Below are positions 4,334 to 61,792 of a stretch of DNA of 64,000 nt, piece by piece. The DNA comes from a candidate division FCPU426 bacterium. Lineage in GTDB: Bacteria > Oederibacteriota > JAAXVQ01 > JAUVAV01. The DNA is taken from NCBI GenBank assembly GCA_030591525.1, contig JAUVAV010000008.1, forward strand, positions 15,839 through 79,838, written 5' to 3'. The notes beneath the pieces were generated by a model. That model did not search any database, was not told where the DNA came from, and worked only from the letters and a program-made list of their open reading frames with translations. Within the stretch, counting starts at the first letter, position 1; the number at the start of each line of letters is the position of its first letter. Both the position numbers and the translations under genes were made by a program.

Positions 4334-4623
4334 TAGAAAAATACAAAGAGACCCTGCAAAAGCGCGGTATTAAAGTTGACCGCATAATTCTCTATGGCTC
4401 TTTTGCGCAAGGCAGAGAAAGAGAGCATAGCGATATTGATCTGGTTGTGGTATCTGAAAATTTCCAAAAAATGAATCTTCGGGAAAGACTGGAAGTATTA
4501 GGCATGGCTGCCGCCAGGATTATGCAGCCTATTGAAGCAAAAGGTTATACTGCCGAGGAAATAGCATCTGCTCCTAACATTAGTTTTCTAAGTGAAATTT
4601 TAAAAGCGGGAGTTAACGTATAA
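4300..4623 (+). CDS. Minimal nucleotidyltransferase (MNT, Pol-beta superfamily) - putative antitoxin
   Basis: A GS...DxD nucleotidyltransferase signature is present (RIILYGSFAQGREREHSDIDLVVV). The protein is 107 aa and is translationally coupled to the upstream HEPN gene. Confidence 0.75.
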   Translation: MYKAGSQVKEIVEKYKETLQKRGIKVDRIILYGSFAQGREREHSDIDLVVVSENFQKMNLRERLEVLGMAAARIMQPIEAKGYTAEEIASAPNISFLSEILKAGVNV

Positions 4624-5205
4624 TCGGCTGATTCCATACTCACGAGCCAGTGCCAAAGAATCCGGATGTGCGGCCAGGCCGCGGCGCTTGAGATAATTAA
4701 GTTTGGCCCGGGCCACCGCGCTGACCGCGGCATCCAAATCCTTAAACGCCAGGACCCGGACGCGTTCTGCCGCGGCATGGGTGCGCAATTCTTCGCAATA
4801 GTCGGCAACATAGATTAACTTATCCAGCGGATGCATGCCCGGTCCTCCAATCGAGTGACGGGCTATGGCTCTTAATACTCCCGGATCTTTTACTCCGAAT
4901 TTGTGAAAAGCCAGGTAAGCGCCCACCGGATTATGCCACAGCTTAGGCTCGGCCCGAATGCCCGCATCCAGATAACGACCACTATATCTGTTTAAGAGTT
5001 TTTTCATCCGGCAATGATCTAAATCACGCGCGCAATCATGCAGTAGACCTGCCAGGTAAGCCCTCTGGCAGCCCACCCCAACTGCGGGAGCAAGTTCTGT
5101 TGCCAAACGAGCTGTGCTCAGGGAGTGCGCGTAGCGCCGGGCGGACAATAACGTCCGGAGTTTACGCTTAATACCGGAAAGGCCCTCCGGGTGGGCCGGG
5201 TTCAC
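4600..5205 (-). CDS. yqeK: HD-domain hydrolase YqeK (bis(5'-nucleosyl)-tetraphosphatase-like)
   Basis: An HD motif context is present (RYAHSLSTARLATELA...LAGLLHDCARD). The start was reassigned from the long ORF (5286) to an in-frame GTG at 5205. This GTG overlaps (GTGA) the stop of an upstream RBS-supported small ORF, and the upstream segment has no YqeK-like sequence. Confidence 0.75.
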   Translation of the reverse strand: MNPAHPEGLSGIKRKLRTLLSARRYAHSLSTARLATELAPAVGVGCQRAYLAGLLHDCARDLDHCRMKKLLNRYSGRYLDAGIRAEPKLWHNPVGAYLAFHKFGVKDPGVLRAIARHSIGGPGMHPLDKLIYVADYCEELRTHAAAERVRVLAFKDLDAAVSAVARAKLNYLKRRGLAAHPDSLALAREYGISRLYVNSRF

Positions 5206-5381
5206 CGCCCCAGGGCCAGCCACCCCAAAGCGCTGAGCAGAATACCCGCCGCCAACCAGATAATCAGTTTTCTTAGGGTATCCCAAGGTCCTACCGGAAT
5301 AGCCCGCAATTTGGCTGCATGTTCAGCAATGTCGAGTTCCTGCTTAACCGGCTTTTTAACCCGGGACTTCCTTCGAGCCAT
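5202..5381 (-). CDS. Small (59 aa) tail-anchored membrane protein, hypothetical
   Basis: The ATG is preceded by a perfect AGGAGG at a 5-nt spacing. The N-terminus is basic (MARRKSRVKKPVK) and one C-terminal transmembrane helix follows (LIIWLAAGILLSALGWLAL). The stop overlaps the yqeK GTG start. It falls below the cutoff of the supplied ORF track. Confidence 0.4.
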   Translation of the reverse strand: MARRKSRVKKPVKQELDIAEHAAKLRAIPVGPWDTLRKLIIWLAAGILLSALGWLALGR

Positions 5382-5415
5382 ATTAGCCTCCTAAAAAATG
5401 TTGTAAACGTATGCA

Positions 5416-5505
5416 TGTCATTCCGAGCGTTAGCGAGGAATCTCCACGAAAACGTTGAATTCAAGAGGCCGGTTGGAGATTTCTCGGCTGCGCCTCGAAA
5501 TGACA
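5416..5505. repeat. Family A inverted-repeat element (TGTCATTCCGAGCGTTAGCGAGGAATCTCC ... GGAGATTTCTCGGCTGCGCCTCGAAATGACA)
   Basis: It shares its termini with the copy at 2328-2411. It is adjacent to a half-copy of family C (5557-5600) and to the palindrome at 5649-5677. Confidence 0.8.
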
Positions 5506-5648
5506 AACTTGGTAAAATTGCTTAAAAATATTATTATGACACAGTCTCTCGAAGGAGAGGAATTATTTATATCTAAACCGACTAAATGCTCAGGCTCCTA
5601 CAACATGGAAATGTTGCATGCAACGTCTCTTCTATGCCACTCACGGGG

Positions 5649-5677
5649 TGTAGGGGCGTTTAATTAAACGCCCCTAC
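5649..5677. terminator. Palindrome GTAGGGGCGTTTAATTAAACGCCCCTAC (family D) downstream of the convergent ABC permease gene
   Basis: A perfect 11-bp stem read directly. It is identical to the copy at 952-979. Confidence 0.5.
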
Positions 5678-5702
5678 AAATGCCGGTGAAGTAAACCCGT
5701 TT

Positions 5703-6587
5703 TTAAACCTGCAGACCGTTGAAAACCACGCCCCGGACAATGTATCTTTGAAAAATAAAATATAGAAAAATCGTGGGCAGGGTAGTCAAGGTAACCACTG
5801 CCATAACCACGTTCCAGGGCTCACCGCCTTCGACCATCTTCTGTATCCCAACCATGAGAGTGTACATTTTAGGATCATTGAGCACGATCAAAGGCCAAAA
5901 GAAACTATTCCAGGTGGTTATAAACCCGAAAATCCCCAAGACCACCAGGATGGGTACCGATATCGGTAGAACGATTTTCCAAAATATCGTCCATTCGGAA
6001 CAACCGTCCAGGCGCCCGGCATCAATTAAATCCTTGGGTAAACGCCCAAAAAAGCTTTTCAATATTAAAATATTAAAAGCCGAGACCACGGTAGGAAGTA
6101 TCAAACCCCAGAAGGTGGAGATTAAGTTGGCATGCGGAAGATTCTGCGCTGGAAAACTCTTCATCACGAGATAAAGCGGAATTAGCAGGCTCTCGGCCGG
6201 AATCATTAAGGTGGACAGAAAAAGAATGAGCAGCAACTTGCCCCCGGGAGGACTCAATTTCGCCAGGGCATAAGCCGCCATAGCGGAAAGCAGCAATTGA
6301 CTGGCCACCACCCCGAAGCAATGTATCAGGGAGTTGAAAATATAGGTCGCAAACGGCACATACTTCCAGGCAATCATATAGGAAGTCCAGTCCAGATGAC
6401 CATAGAACCAGCGGGGCGGCCAACTAAACATGGCCTGGGCCGGAGCCAAAGAAGATGCCACCATCCAACTGAACGGGACCAGCGTCACTCCAGCGCCCAG
6501 GATGATAAACAAAATACCCAGCCCAAAAAATATTTTTACGGTTAGCCGTTTACGGTCGCTGACCGAGATCAGCCCGCTTGTCGCCAT
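5703..6587 (-). CDS. Carbohydrate ABC transporter permease (MalG/CUT1-type, 6 TM)
   Basis: A BPD-transporter inner-membrane component with the EAA-like region (LIDAGRLDGCSEWTIFWKIVLP). It is the last gene of the binding protein-permease-permease operon. Confidence 0.85.
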   Translation of the reverse strand: MATSGLISVSDRKRLTVKIFFGLGILFIILGAGVTLVPFSWMVASSLAPAQAMFSWPPRWFYGHLDWTSYMIAWKYVPFATYIFNSLIHCFGVVASQLLLSAMAAYALAKLSPPGGKLLLILFLSTLMIPAESLLIPLYLVMKSFPAQNLPHANLISTFWGLILPTVVSAFNILILKSFFGRLPKDLIDAGRLDGCSEWTIFWKIVLPISVPILVVLGIFGFITTWNSFFWPLIVLNDPKMYTLMVGIQKMVEGGEPWNVVMAVVTLTTLPTIFLYFIFQRYIVRGVVFNGLQV

Positions 6588-6590
6588 GGC

Positions 6591-8492
6591 TTATCCTCCT
6601 TCCGTTTCCAGCCGACGCAGCCGGAAAACCGTTATGAACAACAGCATAATCAAGAGCAGGATGGACAAGGCCGAAGCGTAACCTATATCCATATTAAAGA
6701 AAGCCTGTTTATATATGTACGTAGCGATGAATTCCGTGGAATTCATGGGCCCGCCATTGGTCATGATATAGACCTCGGTAAAGAGCTGCAGGGTGTTGAT
6801 GATGGTAATAATCAGCATAACGGCGATAACGCCCCGGAGGGCGGGAAAAGTTACATGCCGTACCTTATCCCATATGGAAGCACCATCGATCTCGGCTTCT
6901 TCATATATTGTCTCGTCAATATTTCCGAGCGCCGCAGAGTAAATTAAAATCGCCCATCCGGTGTTTTTCCAAATATATAACAGTACGAGAGAGAGCAGCG
7001 CCAGCTTGGGATTGGTCAGCCAGCCGATATGCGGATCCGCCACCCCGAGTAAGGCCACCAAGGCGTTAATCAGTCCATACCCTTGATCCATCATCCATTT
7101 CCAAAGAATCGCCGCGGGTACGGTAGGCATTAAAAATGGCAGAAAAAACAGGAATTTCAGCAGGCCTTTTCCCCAGCGAAGCTCATTAATAAAAATAGCC
7201 AGCACAATGGGAATCCAGAATCCCATGCCTAATGCCAAGACACAAAATCCCGTGGCATGCCACAAGGTACCCCAAAACATCTCATCCTGAAAAGCCCGGA
7301 CATAATTATCTATTCCGATAAACAGCGATTGTCCGGCCGGTTGGTAATCAAGAAATGAAAGCATCAGACCCTTTAGCATGGGATACCATGAAAAAAGAGA
7401 AAAAGCTATAAAGGCCGGCAAAAGGAAGAGCAGCGCAGCCCGGCGAATCCCGGACATGGTTTTCCGCCACTCCCCGGCCGGTCGCGCTCCCAGGTAATCA
7501 TCCAGCAGGGCCAGTTTGGAAGGCTTGACCGTTATTGACGGTACGGCTTTTGCCATCTTGGGAAGTTTAGGTTTGCGCTGCGGTCTTTCCCAACGCGCCT
7601 GCATCCGTTTACGCCGGAGTTCTTTCTGCGTAAGAAAAACCGGGGAGGGAGCAACCGGTGGTTTAGTTGCCGGCTCAGCCGGGGCCTGATCCTCCGGCCG
7701 CCCAACCTCTTCCGCCTTAGCGGAAACTTTAGCTATTCCAGGTGAAGTCTCAGCTGGCGGCGGCATGGGAGCTTCCGGCAGTTTAGAAACCTCGGTAATC
7801 TTCGGGGTTTCAGGAGCGCCGTGCACTCCGGGAGGCGGCGCACTGACAATTTTTGATATGGTTTCTTCCTCCGCCGCATCAATTTTCTCTGAAATCCGGA
7901 CGTCAGGTTCCAGCTGATTTTGATCGCGCAAATCAATAGTGGGCGGGGTTAGCTCAGTCTCGGTCTGCAAAAATTTATTTTTTAAAACCTGATCAGCGGA
8001 CGATTCCACCTCCTCAACCTCGGGGGGTAATCCTTCCGGCGGCATCGTCCCCAGCGGTTCCGGCGGTTCCGGCACTCCCGGCGGCTGGAAGGCATCGGGC
8101 GGTTCCGGCACTCCCGGCGGCTGGAAGGCATCGGGCTGCTCCGGCGACTCAACACTCGGCTCGATTTCATGAGTTTGCATCTGCCGCGTTCGGGGAATCA
8201 AGTCTTCCCAGGACGATTCCTCGTCTAAAACCGGCGTTTCTTCTTTTAGTTCTTCATCCCGGGTAACAATCGCCTCCTCTATTTTTCCCGACTGCATTCC
8301 TTTCCGATAACCCGCGCCCGCGATTGCCGGAGCCGGAGGACTTGGCGGTTCTTCCGGAACCATTTCTGAAGCCGAAGATATCTGTTCATCAACCAGAGAG
8401 CTGAGAAAATCATTTATTTGATTATCCGTTTGGTTGGACAGCAAACGATCAAAAAAATCCGTGGGTAATCTTTTTCTTCTTTGGGCTGACAT
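6591..8492 (-). CDS. Carbohydrate ABC transporter permease (MalF/CUT1-type) fused in frame to a ~340-aa Pro/Glu-rich disordered N-terminal extension
   Basis: The C-terminal ~290 aa form a typical permease (EAEIDGASIWDKVRHVTFP). The N-terminal 340 aa are acidic and proline-rich with a tandem QPDAFQPPGVPEPP repeat. Alternative internal starts (MAKAVPS / MSGIRRA) are possible. Confidence 0.8.
   Translation of the reverse strand: MSAQRRKRLPTDFFDRLLSNQTDNQINDFLSSLVDEQISSASEMVPEEPPSPPAPAIAGAGYRKGMQSGKIEEAIVTRDEELKEETPVLDEESSWEDLIPRTRQMQTHEIEPSVESPEQPDAFQPPGVPEPPDAFQPPGVPEPPEPLGTMPPEGLPPEVEEVESSADQVLKNKFLQTETELTPPTIDLRDQNQLEPDVRISEKIDAAEEETISKIVSAPPPGVHGAPETPKITEVSKLPEAPMPPPAETSPGIAKVSAKAEEVGRPEDQAPAEPATKPPVAPSPVFLTQKELRRKRMQARWERPQRKPKLPKMAKAVPSITVKPSKLALLDDYLGARPAGEWRKTMSGIRRAALLFLLPAFIAFSLFSWYPMLKGLMLSFLDYQPAGQSLFIGIDNYVRAFQDEMFWGTLWHATGFCVLALGMGFWIPIVLAIFINELRWGKGLLKFLFFLPFLMPTVPAAILWKWMMDQGYGLINALVALLGVADPHIGWLTNPKLALLSLVLLYIWKNTGWAILIYSAALGNIDETIYEEAEIDGASIWDKVRHVTFPALRGVIAVMLIITIINTLQLFTEVYIMTNGGPMNSTEFIATYIYKQAFFNMDIGYASALSILLLIMLLFITVFRLRRLETEGG
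8055..8140. repeat. Perfect 39-bp tandem duplication (ggcggttccggcactcccggcggctggaaggcatcgggc x2) inside the permease N-terminal extension
   Basis: Read directly from the sequence. It encodes the repeated peptide PDAFQPPGVPEPP. Confidence 0.85.
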
Positions 8493-8504
8493 CTCGATAC
8501 TCCC

Positions 8505-8632
8505 CTAGGAGTTTGAGCAATTGAAAATTGAACAATAGAAAATAGACCGCAATTGAGTTTTTTTATTGCTCTATTGTTCAATTTTCAATTGCTCAGAAAT
8601 AAAAAAATCAGACTAAATGCTCAGGCTCCTAT
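8505..8632. repeat. Family C miniature inverted-repeat element (variant copy) between the binding-protein gene and the permease gene
   Basis: Termini are CTAGGAGTTTGAGCAATTGA... and ...GACTAAATGCTCAGGCTCCTA, with an internal palindrome (aattgaaaattgaacaatag / ctattgttcaattttcaatt). They match the ends of the copies at 45685, 54633, 58511 and 61658. Confidence 0.8.
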
Positions 8633-9939
8633 GGCCTGGAAAAAAAATCCCGGTTTATCTGATAATTGAAATCCCGTATATAGGTCTCCAGGTCCAAATC
8701 CTTATCCACAAAAATGGCCTGGAGCGGTCCGTTATTCAACGCATCTTTGACTAAAATCCATTGCTCCAAATGCGGCTCATTGCGGACATATTGCAGTTCT
8801 TCCTTAACCATGGCGAATTCCGGCATATTTATAAGGTTGGCAGAAGCTGAAAAAGCCCCTGGAAATATCGTCATTTTCAACTCATTCATCCGTACCCATT
8901 TCCAGAGCTGATTGGCCGGAGAGATCTCAAATTCTATGTATTTCCAGGCAGCGGCCTGGCGTTCAGGAGAAATGGCGGAATTAATAATATACACTTTCCC
9001 GCCGGCATGCGAAGCCCGCAGCCCTCCGGGGCCGGCCGGCAAGGGAGCGATTCCGGCGGCTTTAAAATCCAATCCATATTTGTTAATCAGAGTGGGAAGT
9101 TGATTGGCCACCCCCATCATCATGGCCACGCGCCCCAGCGCGAACATCTGTGAAACGTCCTCATGGCTGGTTAAATCACTCGGCGGCAATACTCCGTACT
9201 TCAATTTCAAGTCCCGTAAAAACTCCAGCGTCTCGATCACCGGGGTGGTATCCAGAGTGGCCCGCCACCCGCCATGCGGAATACGCGCCACCAATTCTCC
9301 GCCGTTCTGCCAAACAAAATCCATAAAATTCCAGGTGCGGGACGGCCAGCCGAAACCGTATTGTCCCTTTTCGGGAAGCGTAAGGATTTCCGCGTATCGC
9401 ACCAATTCCTTCCAGTTGCGGGGCGGCCGTTCAGGATCCAGCCCGGCCCGGCGAAACAAGTCCTTACGGTAAAATAAAACCGTAAAATAAGTGTCCCGGG
9501 GTATCCCGTAAGTTTTCCCATCCACCCTGGCCGGCTGCCAGACCCTTTCGGGAATATAGTCCTTCTGATCCCAGTCCGTGATATATTCATCCAGAGGAGC
9601 AATAAAACCTTTGCGGGCCAATACGGGAAGAGTTCCCAGCCATATATGCATCACGTCCGGCCCTTTACCGCCGGCCATGGCGGTTATAAATTCCTGAGGT
9701 GAAAATTTACGTTCCAAACCCTTAATTTTAATGTCCGGAAATTCCTGTTCGAAACGCAGCAAGGTTTCCTTCCATAGTTTACGCGCTTTAACCTGCCGCG
9801 CGGAAGGTTTATTCCAGACCTCTAGAACCAGCCCTTCCCGGGGAAACTCGGTCACGAAATAGTAATTCTGTAACCAAACCGCTGCCATAAAAATGAATAA
9901 GCAGAACAGCCCTAAACTCCAGATTATCTTTTTAAGCAT
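8629..9939 (-). CDS. Extracellular solute-binding protein, family 1 (sugar ABC transporter substrate-binding protein)
   Basis: 436 aa. It has an N-terminal signal/anchor (MLKKIIWSLGLFCLFIFMAA) and family-1 SBP-like sequence. It is the first gene of the transporter operon. Confidence 0.8.
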   Translation of the reverse strand: MLKKIIWSLGLFCLFIFMAAVWLQNYYFVTEFPREGLVLEVWNKPSARQVKARKLWKETLLRFEQEFPDIKIKGLERKFSPQEFITAMAGGKGPDVMHIWLGTLPVLARKGFIAPLDEYITDWDQKDYIPERVWQPARVDGKTYGIPRDTYFTVLFYRKDLFRRAGLDPERPPRNWKELVRYAEILTLPEKGQYGFGWPSRTWNFMDFVWQNGGELVARIPHGGWRATLDTTPVIETLEFLRDLKLKYGVLPPSDLTSHEDVSQMFALGRVAMMMGVANQLPTLINKYGLDFKAAGIAPLPAGPGGLRASHAGGKVYIINSAISPERQAAAWKYIEFEISPANQLWKWVRMNELKMTIFPGAFSASANLINMPEFAMVKEELQYVRNEPHLEQWILVKDALNNGPLQAIFVDKDLDLETYIRDFNYQINRDFFSRP

Positions 9940-9990
9940 TCATAACCTTTCAACTTCATATTCATAAAAATCCGTGAAATTTATTCTATC

Positions 9991-10164
9991 CAGGAGCCTG
10001 AGCAATTAGTCCAGAATTCAAGTATTCCCCTCCCTTTTTGACGGGAGGGGACAAAGGGGAGGGTGATAAAAGTCTTTAAAAACGCACCCTCACCTAACCT
10101 CTCCCCTCAAGGGAGAGGAATTATTTATATTATATTAAAACCGACTAATTGCTCAAACTCCTAG
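9991..10164. repeat. Family C element with the same terminal inverted repeats (CAGGAGCCTGAGCAATTAGTC ... GACTAATTGCTCAAACTCCTAG) but a different 130-bp core
   Basis: The termini are shared with the other family C copies. The core contains its own inverted repeats (tcccctccc...gggagggg). The 3' sub-motif (gagaggaattatttatat...aaaccgactaa) recurs at 5557-5600. Confidence 0.75.
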
Positions 10165-10424
10165 TGCCGGGGCTTTTTACCCACGTGCCTGATTGCTTTG
10201 GTAAGCGCTACGACTACATCGGCATTAAATTGCTGTGCCATTTCCGCCACCCGGGTATAGGTGTGCCCCTTGTCCGTTACAACATACTTGGCCGGCAGAT
10301 GATTCAAGGCATAGGCTACTATATCCAGGCGGCAACGGCTGCACTTGCAGATACAATTTGTTTTATCCAATAATTCATCCAAAACATTTTGAACCGCGGT
10401 CTCCATATAATTCTTTAATTTCAT
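10161..10424 (-). CDS. comFB: ComFB-like late competence protein family (four-Cys motif)
   Basis: 87 aa. The pattern VxNVLDELL...CxCxxCxxDIxAxALNxLPxxY (CICKCSRCRLDIVAYALNHLPAKY) is characteristic of the ComFB family. Confidence 0.55.
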   Translation of the reverse strand: MKLKNYMETAVQNVLDELLDKTNCICKCSRCRLDIVAYALNHLPAKYVVTDKGHTYTRVAEMAQQFNADVVVALTKAIRHVGKKPRH

Positions 10425-10747
10425 GCTTCCTCCGTCCCCCGGTTTTTTACCATCCCTTAATACATCCCCGCGAATTCCCCGGGAAAATATACGCCTTGCT
10501 CCCTAATCATAGCGGAAATACTTTTCCGGGCCGTATTATATCATATAACTTTATTTTTTTTATAAAAAACATCTTTCCATTTATTTTTTTATCCCTCAAA
10601 TTTTCGCAATAAATTGACTAAAATTCTCTGATTAAATGGAAGATGTGTATGTTTTTTGTAGGGGGCAGGCCCCCTTGTCCTGCCTGTCCTGAGCGTAGCC
10701 GAAGGGTGTGCCTGCGCTGTATTATGTTTTTCGTAGGGGGCCGGCAC

Positions 10748-11122
10748 CTATTCTTTCTTCAGAATTTCTAAAACCTGCTCGCTCAGTTCGTAGGGATCGA
10801 AAGGCTTTATAATATAATCATCCGCACCGACTTTTAAACCCTGCATGGCATCTCCCCTCTGCCCTTTAGCCGTAAGCATAATCACTGGTATATGCCGGGT
10901 CGGGGTGTCGGCCTTGAGTCTTTGGCAGACTTCGAAACCGTTGATATCCGGCATCATAATATCCAGGAGAATAAGATCCGGCTTGGTACCCTGGACCTTA
11001 TCCAGAGCTTCCTGTCCGGAAAAAGCTTCGATAACCTCGAAATTCGCCAGCTCCAACGAAATTTTTACCAGTTTAACAATATCCGGTTCATCATCCACTA
11101 TCATAACTTTGTGTTTTTTCAT
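10748..11122 (-). CDS. Single-domain response regulator (CheY-like receiver)
   Basis: It has the DD...D...T...K receiver signature: VMIVDDEPDIV, LILLDIMMPDINGFEV, MLTAKG, DDYIIKPF. Confidence 0.85.
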   Translation of the reverse strand: MKKHKVMIVDDEPDIVKLVKISLELANFEVIEAFSGQEALDKVQGTKPDLILLDIMMPDINGFEVCQRLKADTPTRHIPVIMLTAKGQRGDAMQGLKVGADDYIIKPFDPYELSEQVLEILKKE

Positions 11123-11132
11123 TTCAACCTCC

Positions 11133-11417
11133 TCAGTTCCTGATCCGGTAATTATGACCTCTACCGCCTAGCGGAACTTCACGTGTCGTGTTGTCCCATA
11201 TCGCCTTGATAATCCGGCCGGAAGATACTCGGGTATCCCGGGCAGGCTCAAAGCAGGGTGAAGCCTCTAAAATCAGATTTTTAATTTCTTCCTTCCCCTG
11301 ACAATATTCCCCGGAAATTTCTTCCAGCATTTTAAAGCGAAAAATGCCTTTGCGCAATAATAAAAGGTTGCGCACCTTATGTTTAGGCTTGCCCGGGGGA
11401 TGACCGGTTCCCGCCAA
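11133..11417 (-). CDS. Hypothetical protein upstream of and co-directional with the receiver gene (start uncertain)
   Basis: The ORF ends 11 nt before the response regulator start. No motif was recognised. Confidence 0.25.
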   Translation of the reverse strand: MAGTGHPPGKPKHKVRNLLLLRKGIFRFKMLEEISGEYCQGKEEIKNLILEASPCFEPARDTRVSSGRIIKAIWDNTTREVPLGGRGHNYRIRN

Positions 11418-11501
11418 GCGGCCCTCCTGGGCTGATTAATTCCGGTTGTGGAAACGACAAATTCAAGCAACCTGAGCCAACCGCCAGGTTTTGAAGTGTC
11501 C

Positions 11502-11636
11502 GTCATTCCGGCATGGTTTTAGCCCTGGACTAAACTATCCCCTGGACTAATTCATCCCGGACAGGCAGGACAGGCCGGAATCCAGCGACTTTATAAGTAA
11601 AATCAGGCCTGGACCCCGGCTTTCGCCGGGGTGACG
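11502..11636. repeat. Family B element (GTCATTCCGGCATGGTTTTAGCCCTGGACTAAAC ... CCTGGACCCCGGCTTTCGCCGGGGTGACG)
   Basis: A near-identical copy lies at 41234-41343 and a shorter relative at 54511-54604. All begin with TGTCATTCCGGCATG and end with an inverted ...GGTGAC(G). Confidence 0.8.
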
Positions 11637-11805
11637 TAATGGGGATGCATTTGCCCGAAATTGCCTTTCCGCAATAGAAACTAATTAAGCTCCGAAAAAA
11701 CATTGCGCAAAATAACTGAATAACTGACCGGCTGTTTTTTTCTTTAAACTCTTCTATTTTTTAGTTTCGGATGAAAAATCAAGGAACTTGAGTCGCGGGG
11801 ATTCA

Positions 11806-12408
11806 CTATTTATAATAAAGGTTATGGCTGCGCAGATACCTGATTACCGGCTCCGGAACCAGGTAGCGTACCTCACGGCCGGTTCGGAGCAGTTTTCGGA
11901 TATTCGAAGCCGAGATGTCCAGCAGGCTGACCTGAAGAAAAATCGGTTCTTTACTCCATGACCGGAAGACCGGGGAGGCCGGTTTTCTTTTTACGGCTGA
12001 TATTTTCACTCCGGGACGCGAGATTACCACCAAACGGGCGTACTCGGAAATTTTATGCGGCTGGCGCCATTTATCCAGCTTGGCTATCTGGTCGATTCCC
12101 ACGATTAAAAATAATTCATTAAAAGGAGCTGAGCGGGCGAGTTCGGCCAGGGTATCCACGGTGTAGGATTTCCCGGCCCGCCGGATTTCCATATCCGAAA
12201 CCTCAAAAAGCGGATTATCCGCCACTGCCCGTTTGACCATGGCCAGACGGTGGGCCGCGGAAGCCTGGGGCGCACGGCGGTGCGGCGGACATCCGGCGGG
12301 AATAAACAGGACCCGGTCCAGTTCCAGTTTATCCGCCGCTTCCTGGGCGGCCCGTAAGTGACCTAGGTGAACGGGATCAAAAGTCCCGCCGAAGATTCCC
12401 ATGCGCAT
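11806..12408 (-). CDS. nadD: Nicotinate-nucleotide adenylyltransferase
   Basis: The (H/T)xGH motif is present (GIFGGTFDPVHLGHL). The start is chosen at MRMGIFGG. It follows proA as in the conserved obg-proB-proA-nadD arrangement. Confidence 0.85.
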   Translation of the reverse strand: MRMGIFGGTFDPVHLGHLRAAQEAADKLELDRVLFIPAGCPPHRRAPQASAAHRLAMVKRAVADNPLFEVSDMEIRRAGKSYTVDTLAELARSAPFNELFLIVGIDQIAKLDKWRQPHKISEYARLVVISRPGVKISAVKRKPASPVFRSWSKEPIFLQVSLLDISASNIRKLLRTGREVRYLVPEPVIRYLRSHNLYYK

Positions 12409-12424
12409 AGTTTCCGCCTTTACT

Positions 12425-13681
12425 CTATTCCCGTATCTGTCCCTGGCCGCGGACAATAAATTTCGTGGTTGTCAGTTCGCGAATCCCCATCGGTCCGCGG
12501 GCGTGCAGCTTTTGGGTGGAAATGCCGATCTCCGCTCCCAGGCCGAATTGCCCGCCATCCGTAAAACGCGTCGAGGCGTTTACCAGCACTGAGGAGGCGT
12601 CCACTTCGCGCAGCCAGCGTTCGGCATGCATATAATCCGAGGTAACTATCGCTTCCGAGTGTCCGCTTCCATACCGGTCGATATGTTCCATGGCCGCCGT
12701 CTGATCCTCTACCACGCGCACCGCTAAAATCAGGTCCAGGTATTCCGTTCTCCAATCATCCTCTTTGGCCGGTTGGGCGGCCGGATAAATTTCACGCGTA
12801 CGTTGGCATCCCCGCAGTTCCACTCCGGCCTCGTTAAAGCGGGATAGGAGGACCGGAAGAATCCGGGACGCAACCTCGGCATGCACCAGCAAAGTCTCAG
12901 CCGCATTGCACACCCCGGGACGCTGGAGCTTGGAATTAAGGGCGATTTTTTCCGCCATCGCCATGTCGACCGGCGAATCAATATAGACATGGCAATTGCC
13001 ATCGCCGTGGCGGATCACCGGAACCGTGGCCGTATGCGCCACCCACTGCAGGAATGATTTTCCGCCCCGCGGGATGACGCAGTCAATCAACCCTTCCAAA
13101 GTGATTAATTCGGTCACAGCCTGACGGTCAGTGGTCGCTACTACCTGAACCGCTTCGGCCGGTAGTCCGGCCGCCTGGACCGCTTCGGATACGCATTGCC
13201 CAATCGCCCGGCAGCTCCGGAGCGCTTCACTCCCGCCGCGCAGAATGACCGCATTCCCGGATTTAACGCAAAGCCCGGCGGCATCTGCCGTAACATTAGG
13301 CCGGGCCTCATAAACCATGCCCAGCACACCCAGGGGTACGCGCATTCGCCCCACGCGCAGGCCGTTAGGCCTTACCGTCTCCAACTCCACCTCGCCTATG
13401 GGATCCGGCAACCCCATCATCTCCCGCAGCCCTTTAACCATCTCTTGGATGCGCGTCTGGTTTAAGGTTAAGCGATCCAGCAAGGCGCCGGATATTCCCG
13501 CCTGCCGGGCAGCCGCCAGATCTTCCTCATTAGCCTTTAAAATTTCGGCCTGGCGGCGTTCAATAACTTGAGCCATATTCTGCAATGCCTGGTTTTTAGC
13601 CGCGGTTCCGGCGGCCGCCATTATTCTTGCCGCTTTTTTCGCTTTCCCGGCCATGGTTTGCAATTCTTCGCGAATGCTCAT
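12425..13681 (-). CDS. proA: Gamma-glutamyl phosphate reductase (glutamate-5-semialdehyde dehydrogenase)
   Basis: 418 aa of the aldehyde-dehydrogenase family with ProA-like sequence (NASTRFTDGGQFGLGAEIGIST). It lies in the proB-proA operon. Confidence 0.9.
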   Translation of the reverse strand: MSIREELQTMAGKAKKAARIMAAAGTAAKNQALQNMAQVIERRQAEILKANEEDLAAARQAGISGALLDRLTLNQTRIQEMVKGLREMMGLPDPIGEVELETVRPNGLRVGRMRVPLGVLGMVYEARPNVTADAAGLCVKSGNAVILRGGSEALRSCRAIGQCVSEAVQAAGLPAEAVQVVATTDRQAVTELITLEGLIDCVIPRGGKSFLQWVAHTATVPVIRHGDGNCHVYIDSPVDMAMAEKIALNSKLQRPGVCNAAETLLVHAEVASRILPVLLSRFNEAGVELRGCQRTREIYPAAQPAKEDDWRTEYLDLILAVRVVEDQTAAMEHIDRYGSGHSEAIVTSDYMHAERWLREVDASSVLVNASTRFTDGGQFGLGAEIGISTQKLHARGPMGIRELTTTKFIVRGQGQIRE

Positions 13682-29398: not shown

Positions 29399-30976
29399 CT
29401 ACTTTAAAATGGCTATTTTTTGCATGGGATGGACTGTTACCGCGCCGCTGGTCGTGGTTATCATCCGGCAGAAATAAATGCCCGGCGCGATCCCCTGCAA
29501 AGACCAGACCACAGCTTGGCCTGGATTGTCCTGCTTGACTTCCATCACCTGCTCTCCCAAAACATTGAACACCTTGATTTGTATGGACGTCACCCCAACG
29601 GTTTGCCAGGTGAAGCGGACCTCGTTTTGGGCGGGATTGGGATAGGCCAGGATGACCCGCGTGGATAATGCGCCTAGTACCGTCGGGGTCGGCGTGGGCG
29701 AAACCGTCGTGACTGGCGTGGATGAAACCGCCGGGGTCGGCGTGGACGAAACCGTCGTGACTGGCGTGGATGAAACCGCCGGGGTCGGCGTGGACGAAAC
29801 TGTCGTGACTGGCGTGGACGAAACTGTCGTGACTGGCGTGGGCGAAACCGTCGTGACTGGCGTGGATGAAACCGCCGGGGTCGGCGTGGACGAAACCGTC
29901 GTGACTGGCGTGGATGAAACCGCCGGGGTCGGCGTGGACGAAACCGTCGGAGTCGGCGTGGACGAAACTGTCGTGACTGGCGTGGACGAAACTGTCGTGA
30001 CTGGCGTGGACGAAACCGCCGGGGTCGGCGTATACGGCTTGGTATTGGCCGTGTATATCACCGTGTCCATGACCGTGCCGTCCGCCCGGATATGGCGCAA
30101 GGTGGCTTGGGCGCCGTTTACGCTGATTTCCGTGTATCCATAATAGGCGGGTTGCGCCTCATCGAACGAATAGGCGACCATATAGCCATTGTTGTCGTGA
30201 TTCTCGTCCACGGCGTACAGCGGCGCGCCGCCATTGCCTGTGACGATCTGTGCAGTGCCGGCGAGCGGATCGAGCGGCGGATTCTTGTCCCCGTTAAGGT
30301 CGAGTTTAAGCGTGCGAACGTAATAATGCGCATGCCCGGCAAAAATGACGTCACAGCCGCCTTGATACAGCGGTACGCCCCAGGTGGTGTGGAGGGTGCT
30401 TTCGTACACCTTGGGCCCGAAATCAAAGATCGGTGGATGCCAGATCGCGAACAGCCAGTCCTGCGGATTATTCTGAATGGCCTGCTGAAGCATGGTGTAT
30501 TGCGCACCGGTCAGGGACTCGTAGGGATTCAGAATGATGAAGCGGGCGTTCTCGTAATCAAAAGTAAAAAACGTGCCGTTGTTGCCAAATTGGCTGTTCT
30601 GGCCAGGCAGGTAAGTGTTCCAGTTGGCCAGCCCGGCCGGCACGGTAACTTGATCGTGATTCCCCGGCACGGACATATACTTTGGGGGAACCGCGCTCTG
30701 GCCAGTGCCACCCAGGGTCTCATTACAGGCTTGCTGCCAAATATTCCACTGGGACGCTTGCGTGCCGTCCTCAACCACGTCGCCCACGCTGATGATGAAG
30801 CAGTAGTCGGGCGTGTTGGCCTGGATGGCGTTGAGTACGCTGCGGTGAGCTGTATCGTCCGTGCGCGTGTCCCCGTATACCACGAATTTCCAGGGGGTCG
30901 CGGCCTGGGCTTGTGCGCCTGTTAATATCAGCAGCGCCAGCAGTGCCAGCGCCCTGGGTGTAACTTTCCTACGCAA
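29399..30976 (-). CDS. Secreted calcineurin-like metallophosphoesterase with a Thr/Pro/Val-rich repeat linker and a T9SS-type C-terminal sorting domain (CTD)-like tail
   Basis: It has a signal peptide (MRRKVTPRALALLALLILTGAQAQA) and metallophosphatase motifs (GDTRTDD, GDVVEDG, GNHD, AGHAHYY). The linker is (SSTPVTTV/SSTPTPAV)n. The tail has YPNPAQNEVRF...GIYFC...ILK. The start is TTG at 30976. Confidence 0.7.
   Translation of the reverse strand: MRRKVTPRALALLALLILTGAQAQAATPWKFVVYGDTRTDDTAHRSVLNAIQANTPDYCFIISVGDVVEDGTQASQWNIWQQACNETLGGTGQSAVPPKYMSVPGNHDQVTVPAGLANWNTYLPGQNSQFGNNGTFFTFDYENARFIILNPYESLTGAQYTMLQQAIQNNPQDWLFAIWHPPIFDFGPKVYESTLHTTWGVPLYQGGCDVIFAGHAHYYVRTLKLDLNGDKNPPLDPLAGTAQIVTGNGGAPLYAVDENHDNNGYMVAYSFDEAQPAYYGYTEISVNGAQATLRHIRADGTVMDTVIYTANTKPYTPTPAVSSTPVTTVSSTPVTTVSSTPTPTVSSTPTPAVSSTPVTTVSSTPTPAVSSTPVTTVSPTPVTTVSSTPVTTVSSTPTPAVSSTPVTTVSSTPTPAVSSTPVTTVSPTPTPTVLGALSTRVILAYPNPAQNEVRFTWQTVGVTSIQIKVFNVLGEQVMEVKQDNPGQAVVWSLQGIAPGIYFCRMITTTSGAVTVHPMQKIAILK
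29682..30040. repeat. Tandem ~30-nt periodic repeats (gtggacgaaaccgtcgtgactggc / gtggatgaaaccgccggggtcggc variants) encoding the TP-rich linker
   Basis: Read directly from the sequence. At least 12 units with two alternating variants. Confidence 0.85.
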
Positions 30977-31095
30977 CCTGCACTCCCCCCCCCTTATACT
31001 TGCCGGCTGTCCGGTTCATTGTGATGAATTATACTCCACAGGCGCCCCTGTTACTAGCTTTTTTCCGGCTGCAGGGTGATTTGGGTTTGACGACT

Positions 31096-31167
31096 GAAAA
31101 TCATTATAAAGCGGTTCATATGCAATATCCGGGGCAACAGGTTCTGGCGAGGCACGCGTTCTATTCC
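31096..31167. repeat. Left copy of a 72-bp direct repeat bounding a ~3.5 kb island
   Basis: The sequence GAAATCATTATAAAGCGGTTCATATGCAATATCCGGGGCAACAGGTTCTGGCGAGG(C/T)ACGCGTTCTATTCC is identical, apart from one mismatch, to 34562-34632. Confidence 0.85.
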
Positions 31168-34062: not shown

Positions 34063-34561
34063 CTTTCGACCCCGACGTTAAGATAAAGTTGAAGCGAGAG
34101 CTAGAGAAATTTGGGCTTTCTACCTCGATCGCTTCATTCCTCTGACGATCAACTGCGGGTTTGCAAAAAAAGAAAGCCAATCTGCGGTTTAGAGGAACAA
34201 TTGTTTAGTCGGGTTTAATATCGCGGCCTTTCACCGAAGATCAAAGGGATACGAATAAAATGATGGCAGAGAAATTTATTCTAATCCCCGGAAGAAGATG
34301 CCTTAGGTTTAATTCGTTCTGCTCTCAGCTGATAAGAATTTACTTTTGAAGGATAGTGTAACAAAGGCTGAAATAGTACGTCAACGGCAAAATTTCGGGC
34401 TGAGGATGTTATACTCAGACTGGTAAAAACTCTAATCTCGTGTTGGGCAAAGATTTTCCAGCGGCTTTTCTACAATTTCCGGTAAAAATGGCCTTTCTGA
34501 TAGACTGTTGAGACAGTTCTTTCCTATTCCCCCTAGCTACCGATTCTTCCGGATCTAACTG

Positions 34562-34632
34562 GAAATCATTATAAAGCGGTTCATATGCAATATCCGGGGC
34601 AACAGGTTCTGGCGAGGTACGCGTTCTATTCC
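34562..34632. repeat. Right copy of the 72-bp direct repeat. It overlaps the last two codons and the stop of phoR.
   Basis: See 31096-31167. Sequence identity stops exactly at the phoR stop codon. Confidence 0.85.
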
Positions 34633-41149: not shown

Positions 41150-41233
41150 TTTTTCTCTCCTTTTTTTAATTTAAGTTGCGAATCGCAACCCCTGTCTTAT
41201 TTCTTCTGCAATTCAGACAGTAGCAAAACCTTC

Positions 41234-41343
41234 TGTCATTCCGGCATGATTTTAGCCCTGGACTAAACCCTCCAGGACAGGCCGGAATCCAGGGAATTTA
41301 TCGGTCAAATCCATCCTGGACCCCGGCTTTCGCCGGGGTGACG
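41234..41343. repeat. Family B element (second copy) between the porin and pstS genes
   Basis: Near-identical to 11502-11636, including the CCTGGACCCCGGCTTTCGCCGGGGTGACG terminal hairpin. Confidence 0.8.
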
Positions 41344-45684: not shown

Positions 45685-45822
45685 CCAGGAGCTTGAGCAT
45701 TTAGTCTGCTTTTTGAGAGTAGATAGTAGAAAGTAGACCGCATTTGAGATATTTTATCTAATTTCTACTATCGAATCTCAAATGCTCTGAAGCCTGAGTA
45801 ACTAGTTGCTCAGGCTTCTAGG
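45685..45822. repeat. Family C miniature inverted-repeat element (canonical copy). Its right terminal inverted repeat overlaps the stop codon of the giant gene.
   Basis: The sequence is CCAGGAGCTTGAGCATTTAGTC-...AGTAGATAGTAGAAAGTAGACCGCATTTGAGATATTTTATCTAATTTCTACTATCGAATCTCAAATGCTC...-GAGCCTGAGTAACTAGTTGCTCAGGCTTCTAGG. Confidence 0.85.
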
Positions 45823-48800
45823 CCGCGCCGGCGTATGACAAAGACATTTCCCGGATACGACGAGGCGGACGTAACTGCTGCCCATTGGAGTGAAAGATTT
45901 CGTCGTCGTACAAGGTCATCAACTGTTCCTTGAGAAGATCGTCTTTCAAAAGCCGGGCGGGTATTACGCGCTTGATCAAACCTGCCTGGCCGGCGCGAAA
46001 TTGAAGGACTTGCTGGTTGGCCGGGTCAATATGCCGGAAGATCAGTAAAATATGGTCGCGATATGCCAGATCACCCGCCAGCTTGGCACGCCGCATTTCT
46101 TTCATAAGATGGTGCATGATGGATGTGAGAATCTCGCCGTTTTGCGGCGAGTTATCCAACCGGTGCAGGGTACGCATCAGCCAGGCGTCCTGGTTCAAGC
46201 AGCGTTCCCGGATCCGGCGGGAAATAACCGATTTATCATGCAGTTCGGGATCTGCGGCCAGGACTTCTTGTAAGTAACGGCCGGGCGCCAGGTAAAAAGC
46301 GGTTCCATTGATTTTATTCGCATGGTAAATGATCATCTTCAAATGATGATCGATTTCATCAGCTTGAGTATGGGTTATCCGCAGTATCCATAGGAAAACA
46401 GGCGAACGATTCATCAATTTCCGGCCGTCGTGCCATTGCTTTTTTATATGGTCATTCTCCGGAACCGCGTGCCAGGCGCGGCCGTTAACCACTTTTAAGA
46501 TGTCTTTTATGGCTTTCCAAAAAGCCGGCTGCCGCATAAGAAGAATAACCAACAGGATTCCGGGAAGCTTGCGTTGGGAAACGCCAAGCTTCAGGTGCAG
46601 GGAATGTTGTCCGGCCTTTTTAAGCGCCCGGGATCCCATCACCAGTGCCAAGACGAAAAGCACCAGCCGTGATACTTTTTTGCGGGCGGCTATGGCGGTA
46701 TCAGCGCCGGTTTCCTCTCCCGGCAGGCGAATTCCTTCTTTTTCAAGGCCGGAGAATCCGGCAGACCGTCCCGCCACGCCGGCCGCCGCGCTTCGGAAAT
46801 CCGCAAAGGGTGCCTGCAGCGCTTCTTCAGAAATTACCGGTACCGGGCCTTGGCGGAAAACAGCTATACGATAAAGATCATCGCGGTAATGTGTCCGCCG
46901 GATGGCTTCCGCTTCATCCTTTGAAAAGTCCAACCGCCCGGAACTCTGTTCCTCCCGGACGCGCTGTTCAAAGGCGGCCTGCGCGGCTTGATTATCCGCC
47001 AAACCGGCTGCCGCCTCTCCCACCGAGGCGTGCATATCGGATGCCAGACTTTGCTTTTTTGCCCACCAGGCCAGGCGGTCCAGATCTACACCGTCTTTCC
47101 ACCCGTGGGCTCCAGGGCAATAATTAATAAACATGATACTGCCGGCCTTCAATTTGCGGGAAGCTTGCGTCATAACTTGGTAAGGAGTAAACCAGCAGAC
47201 TGCCACGCCGTCCTGGGCCTTACGGGCTTGGGCCTGCAAAATCTTCCGGCGTTCTTTGAAATAAGCGTTCAGCCCGGGTATGCCATCTAACTCAACCTCC
47301 CGGTTATCCGCCGCAATAAACCGAACCTTACCGGCACTGTTCATTTCTATCCGGACTGTGTTTTGATATTGCCCGCTCAGGATAATCATGCCTTTGAAAG
47401 CAGCCATGCTCTCCAGAGCGGCCGGCGTTTGCTCTCCCGCGGGAATATTAACCAGGCGCATATTCTTTAAAAAATCCCGATAGGTTTGCGCCGCCCCGGG
47501 ACGGATTTCCATGCGCTGGTTGAAGTAAGCTGTAATATCTTCCTGCAAACCGTCAATGTCCGTAACCAAGGTATATTTGCCCTTAAATTTCGCCGGGCCG
47601 CCTAATTGTTTCCACTGCCGGAAGGCGTACTCGGCAATCGCCGGACCCTGCCCCCGGTGCAGAATCCGCTGGTATGCGCTGTAGCCGGCTTGCAATCGTT
47701 CTTCCGCCTCCTGACTTGCCAGAGAATCAGGCTCCGGGTAAAACGTATCTGCCCGGGCTGCCAGGAAACCCAAATGTACCAGCCCCGCAGACACGCCGTT
47801 GCCAATAACCCGGCCTCCCAGCCAGCCGGCCGCAGCGCTCCAGACGGCCGCCAATCCGGTTAAGATCCACTCTTTCCGGCGGAAGCGTTTGAACCCGGAT
47901 CCAATCAAGGATAAGAATAGGCGCTGGTCCGGCTGAATTGGTTCCAGCATAAACCGCAACTTTTGGCCCAGAGGGCTGGTTTTAAAACGGAGCCAGGGCC
48001 GGATCAGAAAGAAACGCTGCCATTGGCCGGACCCCGGGGGTTGAGGTTTGATATTAAGCTCACGGTGGCGTTCCATAAGATTTATCAAAGACGCAGATTC
48101 TTCCTGCCTGAGCTGCTGCGCCATAGTCCCCGGAGACTTCCGGCTCCACTTCTGAAGCCAATCATCAGCCAGTCTTCCGGCGATCCCGCGAAACCTCTCA
48201 CGCGCTGCTTCCAGCTGGCCGGAATCGTAGACAGCATACGGTTCCGGCCAGGGATGAGCCAGCCGGGTGATTCCCGCCTTCTGGATTAAACGGCTGAATC
48301 CTTCCTCTTTGGTCAAGTCCTTGCTAGGGCAGTTGCTGGAGACCGCGGAAAGAGTAATCGGAACTTTGGAATAGCGGTTAATACGTTCCTTCAGAGTCTG
48401 CAGAAACAGAGGCGCCGCCTGGTTTAAATTCCGGACAACCAGCAAGCGTCCCAACTGCTCCTCCTCAATATGCATAAGCAGCGCGGGCAGCACCCAAGGA
48501 TGACAGGAATTTATTTCGGGCGCTTCTATTTTATATTCAATATCCAAAAGATGTGTGATTTCCGGGCAAACCACAACGATTCGGATTTTTTCCTTGTCAT
48601 AGACATGCCGGGGAGGCGCCCGGCTGATGAAAACCGCGGGTTCAAATTTTTTCAGCCGGCCTAAAAAGCTCAGTCGTTCAATAACTAACCGCTCCAAGCC
48701 GAAAAAACTCAACACCCAGGGGGCCGCTTTTTCATAAAGCAGATAGCCATCGGCATTTTTAACCTCAGAATTAATCGCATAGCGTTTTTGCAGAGCCCTG

Positions 48801-54223: not shown

Positions 54224-54510
54224 CAGGCCTCTCTTTGCTTTTTTAAAATATGCTCCTGTATTTTTTTGCAAACGCGGTAATAGAGAAATCCCATCACGCC
54301 TATGCAAAGTAAAACTATCAACCCTAAAACAATTTCCATTTTTCTATTCTCCTGTTTTTATTCAGATTAATTATAGCTTCTGTTGGTTAAGAAAATATTT
54401 CGGAAATGTGTTTTTTGTGTGAATATTTATCAGATGCTTTAGAGAGATCGCTGGAGAAAATACTAAATTGCACTAGTGTCGTGTTTCATAAGTACGTTGA
54501 ATTAATGTTT

Positions 54511-54604
54511 TGTCATTCCGGCATGCTCTAAGCCGGAATCCAGGGGCTTTGTCCTTGAAAAATAATGTTTTTCTGGGCCCCGGCTAAAATCATGCCAGGG
54601 TGAC
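54511..54604. repeat. Family B-related short element (TGTCATTCCGGCATG ... CATGCCAGGGTGAC)
   Basis: It shares the terminal inverted repeat of family B and is adjacent to a family C copy. Confidence 0.7.
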
Positions 54605-54632: not shown

Positions 54633-54770
54633 CTAGGAGCTTGAGTATTTAGTCAGTTTTTTGAGAGTAGATAGTAGAAAGTTGACCGCATTTGAGATAT
54701 TTTATCTAATTTCTACTATCGAATCTCAAATGCTCTGGAGCCTGAGCAACTAATTGCTCAGGCTCCTGGG
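54633..54770. repeat. Family C miniature inverted-repeat element between the giant gene start and the PHP-GT4 gene end
   Basis: About 95% identical to 45685-45822 and 58511-58645. Confidence 0.85.
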
Positions 54771-61657: not shown

Positions 61658-61792
61658 TAGGAGTTTGAGCATTTAGTCGGTTTTTTGAGAGTAGATAGTA
61701 GAAAGTAGACCGCATCTGAGATGTTTTATCTAATTTCTACTCTCGAATCTCAAATGCTCTGGGGCCTGAGCAACTAATTGCTCAGGCTCCCA
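61658..61792. repeat. Family C miniature inverted-repeat element immediately 5' of the lipid-kinase gene
   Basis: It has the same terminal inverted repeats and core as the other copies, with a few substitutions. Confidence 0.85.

Follow-up and report, generated by a model that had tools for sequence, protein, structure and literature searches.

The window analysed here is a stretch of 64,000 nucleotides from a candidate division FCPU426 bacterium (contig JAUVAV010000008.1, positions 15,839 to 79,838), and it holds the operon of a CUT1-type ATP-binding cassette (ABC) importer whose first permease carries a long N-terminal tail. To judge from the reading frame and its relatives, this extension is almost certainly real, translated from the ATG at 8492, and conserved. 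It consists of a basic tip, an acidic helix-break-helix of about 30 residues, a predicted-disordered linker of about 250 residues and a basic juxtamembrane helix. We see an even chance that the tail is a tethered docking peptide, that is, a short linear motif which would recruit a partner or gate transport. The extended permease is a familiar transporter subunit in a new form that is confined to a few lineages.

Evidence for a translated extension

Hydropathy and an AlphaFold2 model place the first transmembrane helix (TM1) at about residues 339-378, with some 345 residues (345-354) before it. The ATG at 8492 is the earliest start codon downstream of an in-frame stop and follows a Shine-Dalgarno-like site (Table 1); AAGGGAG and the ATG are kept at the equivalent site in the nearest relative (L003) and in the next (L004). 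Within the tail, the coding frame contains no stop, while each of the remaining five frames of the same DNA contains 8 to 25. Such a stop-free frame has a chance probability of about 6e-7, and none of 20,000 shuffles matched it. Codon-usage log-odds, taken with the confident genes of the window as reference, are positive in the tail frame only, and GC contents at codon positions 1/2/3 are 0.66/0.47/0.52, versus 0.59/0.41/0.58 in real genes.

A sequence-only reading of this DNA had described a long in-frame N-terminal extension on the permease, and that description holds: the stop-free stretch covers about 345 residues, and the start Met and in-frame fusion are common to about 25 homologues. 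The same reading had left room for orthologues lacking the extension and for an upstream kilobase devoid of coding signature. The orthologues do carry the extension, and the coding signature in the upstream 1 kb is clear and accompanied by purifying selection. It had also considered translation from either of two internal methionines, MAKAVPS (M314) or MSGIRRA (M346). These starts do not stand up: M314 is Leu in most homologues, M346 is likewise not conserved, and we found no Shine-Dalgarno site at either.

Could the extension nevertheless be an artefact, whether of an internal true start at MAKAVPS or MSGIRRA, of an assembly or frameshift fusion of two genes, or of noncoding upstream DNA taken for coding? 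Canonical relatives have merely 9-58 residues before TM1, the public protein collection holds no exact match of the 633-aa protein, and the contig of an independent assembly ends within a tandem repeat of the linker. However, the fusion recurs with the identical start Met in about 25 independent assemblies, its stop-free frame has proper codon usage, the tail is under purifying selection along its length, and the internal methionines have the shortcomings just described. Moreover, that same independent contig (L024) equals the window sequence from the repeat into the membrane domain, with the frame unchanged. We consider the artefact reading effectively refuted, with scarcely any probability left to it; the start at 8492 should not be trimmed by gene callers or curators.

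A near-invariant tip on a variable linker

The tail contains 15.7% Pro and 17.7% Asp+Glu, and 70% of its residues are disorder-promoting; it contains no hydrophobic segment (maximum Kyte-Doolittle hydropathy over 19 residues, KD19, 0.57). Its earlier description as acidic, Pro-rich and disordered is right for the composition and for the predicted disorder of the linker. The tail is not uniform, however: an alignment of 21 full-length family members defines four conserved islands (Table 1), the first of which, aa 4-39, is near-invariant, with at least 95% identity at most positions. Its helix-break-helix motif combines the invariant polar residues N20, Q21, T22, D23, Q25, N27, D28, S32, E36 and Q37 with a conserved hydrophobic face formed by F13, F14, L17, L18, I26, L30, L33, V34 and I38. 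Between islands 3 and 4 lies a heavily gapped linker that can barely be aligned, where the predicted local distance difference test score (pLDDT) of the AlphaFold2 model is mostly below 50.

Rates of nonsynonymous and synonymous substitution (dN / dS), computed per segment against L003, follow this layout. They are 0.033 / 0.448 for aa 1-40 (ratio about 0.07), 0.157 / 0.533 for aa 41-110, 0.26 / 0.43 for the linker (ratio about 0.6), 0.154 / 0.429 for aa 291-345 and 0.054 / 0.288 for the membrane domain (ratio about 0.19). The tip is thus constrained more tightly than the transporter core, and the linker is relaxed yet coding. Over aa 1-40, dS is 0.45 against L003 and saturated against more distant relatives.

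The AlphaFold2 model of the window protein, built from a 107-sequence alignment, has helices at residues 13-19 and 21-37 (pLDDT 52-68) and at 289-301 (pLDDT 75-85), 204 residues with pLDDT below 50, and a confident membrane domain of six helices. Charge is distributed in blocks: +4 for aa 1-9, -5 for aa 10-39, -9 for aa 40-110, -22 for aa 111-285 and +12 for aa 286-345, so that aa 10-285 together have a net charge of -36. We infer that the tail faces the cytoplasm, because a basic block of +12 lies by TM1 (the positive-inside rule), because there is no signal or hydrophobic segment, and because the solved relatives SugA and MalF have an N-in topology. A Tat or Sec signal was also considered for the N-terminal RRKR and rejected, as no hydrophobic h-region follows it.

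Does this charge pattern point to an electrostatic switch within the protein itself? The acidic motif and linker would then fold onto the basic juxtamembrane helix or the membrane and gate transport in response to ionic strength or crowding, with no partner involved. The opposite net charges of aa 10-285 and aa 286-345 would suit such a device, as would the fact that no parts of the tail are better conserved or better predicted than its acidic N-helix and its basic juxtamembrane helix. Both helices also co-occur in the window's family and in a modelled member of a sister clade, the sequences of the other sister clade being alike, and BetP is regulated via its terminal domains (PMC10710835). 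On the other hand, the uncharged polar residues N20, Q21, T22, Q25, N27, S32 and Q37 are invariant, though switches usually tolerate charge-preserving change; the N-terminal helices do not reach high AlphaFold2 confidence in the full-length context; and a fold-back latch needs no 250-residue linker. We therefore regard an intramolecular switch as unlikely, and keep to a docking peptide on a tether as the preferred reading.

Orthologues and sister clades

Searched by itself, the tail (aa 1-345) retrieved ten proteins: nine PF00528 permeases of 535-602 aa and one N-terminal fragment. Scanning one genome per species, we found 13 loci with the extension, in metagenome-assembled genomes (MAGs) labelled Candidatus Firestonebacteria, candidate division FCPU426, Candidatus Goldiibacteriota or 'uncultured bacterium'. 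Eleven are complete open reading frames (ORFs) of 572-616 aa, and the other two leave the contig end after 264 and 501 codons. At all 13 loci the ORF opens with the same Met and motif, in DNA of 47-67% GC. Start Met and motif recur, fused to the permease, in three further loci from JGI metagenome contigs and in 17 full-length database proteins. The nearest relative of the window, L003, is a Firestonebacteria MAG with an equal gene order and with 89-92% identity in Obg, ProB and ProA.

A search with the membrane domain ranks the wider family into clades. The window's family (identity to the window protein at least 62%) has 256-354 residues before TM1; a sister clade (50-56% identity) has 137-191 and a second sister clade (41-49%) 136-177; canonical permeases, at 40% identity or less, have the 9-58 residues given above. 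Both sister tails open with an acidic amphipathic segment (KLFDELL... or DDIFGKVGSDLSENAIKGMVDDEL), continue with a hydrophobic-basic motif (LPRLRL or LPIIKLKL) and end in a basic region. AlphaFold2 models one member of the second sister clade with an N-helix at 12-30, disorder at 31-82 and a basic helix at 93-106 before TM1, a layout equal to that of the window protein with a linker of about 50 residues. In the window's family, the linker of this layout appears enlarged about fivefold.

A profile of aa 1-110 has no match outside the window's family among 1.84e9 representative proteins, and this 110-residue profile can serve as a specific marker for the operon. Run against the PDB, aa 1-110 of the window's family gave chance-level matches only, as did Pfam families on the N-terminal tail regions of the three clades (E-values up to 10). 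Our literature searches turned up neither a tail of this kind nor this family of permeases.

Is the extension, then, mostly a functionless lineage-specific insertion, drifting neutrally, with the conservation of its N-terminus due to constraints on translation initiation or mRNA? The linker ratio of about 0.6, its quick indel and repeat turnover and the narrow taxonomic range of the tail could be read in this way. Yet over aa 1-40 dS is normal, at 0.45, and dN 0.03, which places the constraint on the protein and not on the mRNA. The motif is also kept over 47-67% GC, the length of the extension is confined to 256-354 aa in the family, and islands 2-4 are conserved too. Neutral drift therefore seems very improbable to us, and we turn to what a docking peptide could do.

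A tethered docking peptide?

Under the reading we prefer, a conserved protein of the cytoplasm would serve as docking site for the invariant N-terminal peptide and would be kept close to the transporter by the flexible linker; docking would recruit that partner or gate transport. Candidate partners are the ATPase, which the operon does not encode, a co-operonic 59-aa membrane protein, the YqeK-type HD hydrolase encoded at the end of the cluster, or a regulator. The linker would be selected for length, acidity and flexibility rather than for sequence, and on this proposal its repeat turnover would follow from that kind of selection.

The main argument for docking is that ten polar residues and a hydrophobic face are invariant across three candidate phyla while the linker is free to change. 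Because invariant polar residues belong to the motif, a protein-protein interface appears more plausible than a lipid-binding helix. We had also considered the motif as a membrane-binding amphipathic helix and rejected this as unlikely, since its net charge of -5 disfavours binding to anionic membranes. The linker is predicted to be disordered and is biased in composition, and the tip is far more conserved than the linker (dN/dS 0.07 versus 0.6), both of which are expected of a tethered motif. That the tail could be a docking or regulatory region had been suggested by the sequence-only reading; the suggestion fits the invariant N-terminal motif, and it is in this conditional form that we retain it.

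Several observations weigh against a docking role, or against some of its candidate partners. The helices of the motif reach a pLDDT of just 52-68 in the full-length model, which thus gives no sign that they are docked. A tether of about 250 residues far exceeds the reach needed for the transporter's own ATPase. One sister-clade locus (L017) has the extension and lacks the 59-aa ORF. Conserved synteny in these phyla extends to the genes for BioG and a methyltransferase, so that the common gene order may reflect general synteny and not function, and adjacency alone is weak evidence of a functional link. Lastly, hhalign aligns the tails of the three clades colinearly, but with E-values of 0.014-0.087 and probabilities below 5%. 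These values are not significant; a common origin of the three tails is likely on parsimony, though unproven.

Bacterial ABC importers are usually regulated via their ATPase subunit, as in the cases of MalK and EIIAGlc, the C2 domain of MetN and the CBS domain of OpuA. A conserved tail with an invariant motif on the membrane subunit would be a different route of regulation or assembly. Tentatively, the tail could be an undescribed regulatory device of type I importers, in which a peptide on a tether captures an unlinked shared ATPase, the 59-aa tail-anchored protein or YqeK and so controls assembly or activity of the transporter. In that case the five genes of the cluster, for binding protein, extended permease, second permease, 59-aa protein and YqeK, would form a single functional unit that is peculiar to Firestonebacteria, FCPU426 and Goldiibacteriota. 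We hold this wider proposal to be possible and somewhat doubtful.

A conserved terminal peptide on a variable Pro/Ala/Glu-rich linker is familiar from FtsZ, with its C-terminal linker and C-terminal peptide, and from the C-terminal tail of SSB; these linkers evolve via indels while the tip is invariant. The likeness is one of design only, as these are other proteins, extended at the other terminus and devoid of sequence similarity to the permease. The tail offers a clean natural example, in uncultivated phyla, of a conserved tip on a fast-evolving disordered tether. Charged tails that tune transporter activity are also known, such as the anionic C-terminal tail of OpuA. In BetP, short charged cytoplasmic N- and C-terminal domains have this role (PMC10710835). 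These tails are tens of residues long and belong to an ATPase subunit (OpuA) or to a secondary transporter (BetP); neither is a 345-aa N-terminal tail on the membrane subunit of an importer with an invariant terminal motif.

Another parallel is Rv1747 of Mycobacterium tuberculosis, an ABC transporter with a cytoplasmic N-terminal module that includes a disordered linker of about 150 aa; this module serves regulation and clustering (PMC7761784), and Rv1747 is also listed in connection with phase separation. Rv1747 differs in that it is an exporter to which a nucleotide-binding domain is fused, and its module includes phospho-threonine sites and two folded FHA domains, while the permease tail has neither FHA nor any Pfam domain. 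Could the tail likewise be a scaffold for self-association, in which the N-terminal hairpins pair between transporters and a multivalent linker drives clusters or condensates? The conserved hydrophobic face of the helix-break-helix, the long low-complexity linker with its several conserved islands and the Rv1747 precedent of FHA domains linked by a 150-aa disordered region (PMC7761784) are compatible with this. However, the tail has no FHA or other recognised interaction domain, a single tail per transporter gives low valency, and the net charge of -36 over aa 10-285 disfavours self-condensation. Clustering thus appears quite unlikely, and capture of a partner by the docking peptide is the reading we retain.

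The membrane domain

The sequence-only reading had called the protein a MalF-type ABC permease. It is a CUT1 superfamily permease, but not MalF proper. PF00528 (BPD_transp_1) is its sole Pfam match (aa 427-623, 56 bits versus a gathering cutoff of 26.4). The EAA coupling motif, EEAEIDGASIWDKVRHVTFPA, at aa 531-551 (6840-6902) is of normal form (EAAxxDGAxxxxxFxxIxxP), and its residues E531, A533, G537, A538 and P550 are at least 90% conserved among 107 sequences. The top NCBIfam matches, UgpA, GlcT and MalF, are all far under their cutoffs: the best, UgpA (NF007852), scores 103.5 bits versus 335, and MalF (NF008232) scores 58 versus 392 with only model positions 260-513 aligned. In the AlphaFold2 model there are six TM helices, not eight, and there is no P2 domain or loop.

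The closest fold by Foldseek is SugA (7cad_A; TM-score 0.88, root-mean-square deviation 2.9 A), and phmmer E-values are 2e-28 for AlgM1, 1e-24 for SugA and 5e-15 for the C-terminal core of MalF. SugA of the mycobacterial LpqY-SugABC (PDB 7CAD, 8JA7) and AlgM1 of the alginate importer of Sphingomonas (PDB 4TQU) share with the window domain the six-helix type I fold and the EAA motif, as well as the position of first permease in a cassette of binding protein, permease and permease. Their chains differ in being about 300 aa long with short N-termini, and identity to the window protein is just 25-28%. Escherichia coli MalF (of MalFGK2) is alike in superfamily and operon position, and its TM3-TM8 core aligns with the window domain. 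It has, however, eight TM helices and a large periplasmic P2 loop, and its extra N-terminal part is made of membrane helices and not of a soluble disordered tail. A PDB profile search and Foldseek found no counterpart of the ~345-residue tail in solved structures. We conclude that the membrane domain is that of a generic SugA/AlgM1/UgpA-like CUT1 first permease.

Operon context

The order binding protein, extended permease, second permease and YqeK-type HD hydrolase was found in every locus examined, in all three clades (coordinates in Table 1). None of these loci has an ATPase gene in the operon. The window contains no MalK/MsiK-type ATPase either; the lone ABC_tran protein found in it belongs to a Pst phosphate operon. 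The ATPase is presumably borrowed from elsewhere in the genome. Among CUT1 systems, reliance on an ATPase from another locus has precedents such as UspABC (PMC7761784). Like the system in the window, UspABC of M. tuberculosis (PMC7761784) and the MsiK/MsmK-dependent systems consist of a binding protein and two six-helix permeases with no nucleotide-binding subunit, but their permeases have ordinary short N-termini, and neither a tether nor an accessory 59-aa protein is known to have been described for them.

Table 1. Features of the extended permease and its operon, with positions in the 64,000-nucleotide window
Feature	Positions	Strand	Remarks
Substrate-binding protein (PF01547/PF13416, SBP_bac_1)	8629..9939	-	opens the cassette; syntenic at every related locus
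Palindromic intergenic element, ~120 nt	8506..8628	-	perfect 26-bp stem 8514-8539 / 8570-8595; formerly 'family C element'
Shine-Dalgarno-like GGGGAG	8500..8505	-	7 nt 5' of the ATG at 8492-8490; read from sequence
Extended permease, whole ORF, 633 aa + stop	6591..8492	-	ATG start; first permease of the CUT1-type ABC importer
Island 1, aa 4-39 (QRRKRLPTDFFDRLLSNQTDNQINDFLSSLVDEQIS)	8376..8483	-	near-invariant basic patch, then acidic helix-break-helix motif
Island 2, aa 69-82 (GKIEEAIVTRDEEL)	8247..8288	-	short conserved motif (21-sequence alignment)
Island 3, aa 98-104 (LIPRTRQ)	8181..8201	-	short conserved motif (21-sequence alignment)
Variable acidic Pro-rich linker, aa ~105-288	7629..8180	-	predicted disordered, indel-rich; one semi-conserved patch SAPPPGVHGAPE
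In-frame tandem duplication, 36-bp (12-aa) unit PDAFQPPGVPEP	8062..8136	-	perfect over 75 bp, 2.08 copies
Basic juxtamembrane helix, aa 289-301 (QKELRRKRMQARW)	7590..7628	-	AlphaFold2 helix, pLDDT 75-85
Island 4, aa 308-317 (PKLPKMAKAV)	7542..7571	-	basic conserved motif before TM1; family consensus RKPKxPKLA
Six-helix transmembrane domain, aa ~339-633	6594..7478	-	PF00528; AlphaFold2 pLDDT >90, six TM helices
Second permease, 294 aa (MalG/UgpE/SugB position)	5703..6587	-	PF00528; begins 4 nt past the stop of the extended permease
59-aa ORF MARRKSRVKKPVKQELDIAEHAAKLRAIPVGPWDTLRKLIIWLAAGILLSALGWLALGR	5202..5381	-	between second permease and yqeK; AGGAGG 6 nt upstream
YqeK-type HD hydrolase	4600..5205	-	likely GTG start at 5205; TIGR00488 122 bits versus cutoff 70; always last in the cluster

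The 59-aa ORF escaped the ORF list, which had a 60-aa minimum. Its product combines a strongly basic N-terminus with a conserved QELDxAEHAxRLR segment and a TM helix at the C-terminus, and it has no Pfam match. It is present in the window's family and in the second sister clade, most of the loci examined carrying it. Among 5.8e9 proteins it forms 36 clusters, and the contigs that were checked all bear the same operon. The protein may be an accessory component of the transporter.

For yqeK, the longest-ORF call of 228 aa from a TTG at 5286 (4600-5286, minus strand) is probably too long. The GTG at 5205 gives a 201-aa YqeK, as called in two other loci (L022 and L023). This GTG overlaps the TGA of the 59-aa ORF, which suggests translational coupling of the two genes.

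In other bacteria nadD and yqeK are usually neighbours. Here comFB and the ABC cassette lie between nadD (11806-12456) and yqeK (region 4600-12456, minus strand). The linkage of cassette and yqeK is kept in all related loci; nadD is found upstream only in the window and in L003, the contig of L004 being too short. The sequence that most resembles a promoter in this region (TTGAGC, 16 nt, TATAAT; 10/12 matches) is at 10129-10156 on the minus strand, 5' of the binding-protein gene, and its -35 hexamer falls inside a repeated end module described below. A large OmpA-domain protein (about 750-780 aa, FlgD_ig + OmpA) is encoded directly 5' of the cassette in several loci of two clades (L001, L002, L017 and L025), and not in the window.

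Tandem repeats and turnover of the linker

The sequence-only reading had reported a perfect 39-bp tandem repeat at 8062-8139. The duplication is indeed perfect and in frame, but its unit is 36 bp and it ends 3 bp earlier; the figure of 39 bp measures how far the sequence matches itself when offset by 36 bp. A further proposed repeat, PPEGLPPEVEEVE, occurs a single time and is therefore no repeat. The duplication falls where conservation along the linker is lowest, in a region gapped in half of the family or more. Neither of the two closest relatives has it: L003 shows a 55-residue gap at that place, and L004 a 16-residue gap across one repeat unit.

These relatives have in-frame linker repeats of their own, elsewhere than the window's: L003 carries units of 15, 21 and 18 bp with 97-100% matching (L003 8345-8737), and L004 a perfect 24-bp repeat (L004 3658-3712). 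Because near relatives thus bear different in-frame repeats at other places of the linker, replication slippage is, as far as sequence comparison can tell, a recurrent route of linker length change in the Firestonebacteria branch. De Bruijn assemblers are expected to break at tandem duplications. The Logan contig L024, an independent assembly of the same organism, begins inside the last repeat unit and is identical to the window from there into the membrane domain. An exact search of metagenome contigs for the 36-bp unit gave 0 matches, and the contigs retrieved through neighbouring proteins were all short, one of them breaking off within the repeat. The earlier idea of slippage and length variation is thereby supported indirectly, by the other repeats in relatives and by the break of L024.

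A palindromic intergenic element and other repeats

The ATG of the extended permease lies about 20 nt past a palindromic intergenic element, in agreement with the sequence-only reading, which had placed the ORF start right after it. This element reaches from the stop of the binding-protein gene to the Shine-Dalgarno site of the permease, and its palindrome folds at -55.6 kcal/mol (z = -6.7). The spacer between the two genes is 136 nt in the window and only 13 nt in L003 and L004, from which we infer that the window's lineage gained the element by insertion; stop codon, Shine-Dalgarno site and ATG are all spared. The intergenic hairpin lacks a T-tract and received no terminator call. An Rfam scan of 5200-11900 gave sub-threshold hairpin look-alikes only (about 30 bits versus a gathering score of 99). 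In malE-malF, repetitive extragenic palindromic (REP) elements affect the ratio of binding protein to permease; by analogy, we conjecture that the present element could alter this ratio.

Its end module, GACTAAATGCTCAGGCTCCTA, is repeated at 5575-5611 and 10137-10174 and in four 137-nt copies further along the window. The 137-nt copies are palindromic, resemble miniature inverted-repeat transposable elements (MITEs) or REP elements and are 93-100% identical (45686-45822, 54634-54770, 58509-58645 and 61658-61794). The shorter related end modules, at 5575-5611, 8603-8642 and 10137-10174, flank each of the three intergenic regions in the ABC cassette. Copies of the 137-nt element also lie on either side of a giant ORF (2829 aa; 45818-54307, minus strand). 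Unrelated to this palindromic family is a second intergenic repeat family, GTCATTCCGGCATG...GCCGGAATCCAG...CCCCGGCTTTCGCCGGGGTGACG, at 11498-11636, 41231-41343 and 54508-54560.

Two further repeats are found elsewhere in the window. A 24-nt tandem array of more than 13 registers with 70-93% identity (29631-30079) lies inside an ORF at 29399-30976 on the minus strand, which encodes a calcineurin-like phosphoesterase with a Por secretion tail. A 75-nt direct repeat of 97% identity, at 31093-31167 and 34558-34632, has its copies 3.5 kb apart; they bracket a Y2-transposase fragment, CheR and a trypsin-like ORF and may be the boundaries of a mobile element.

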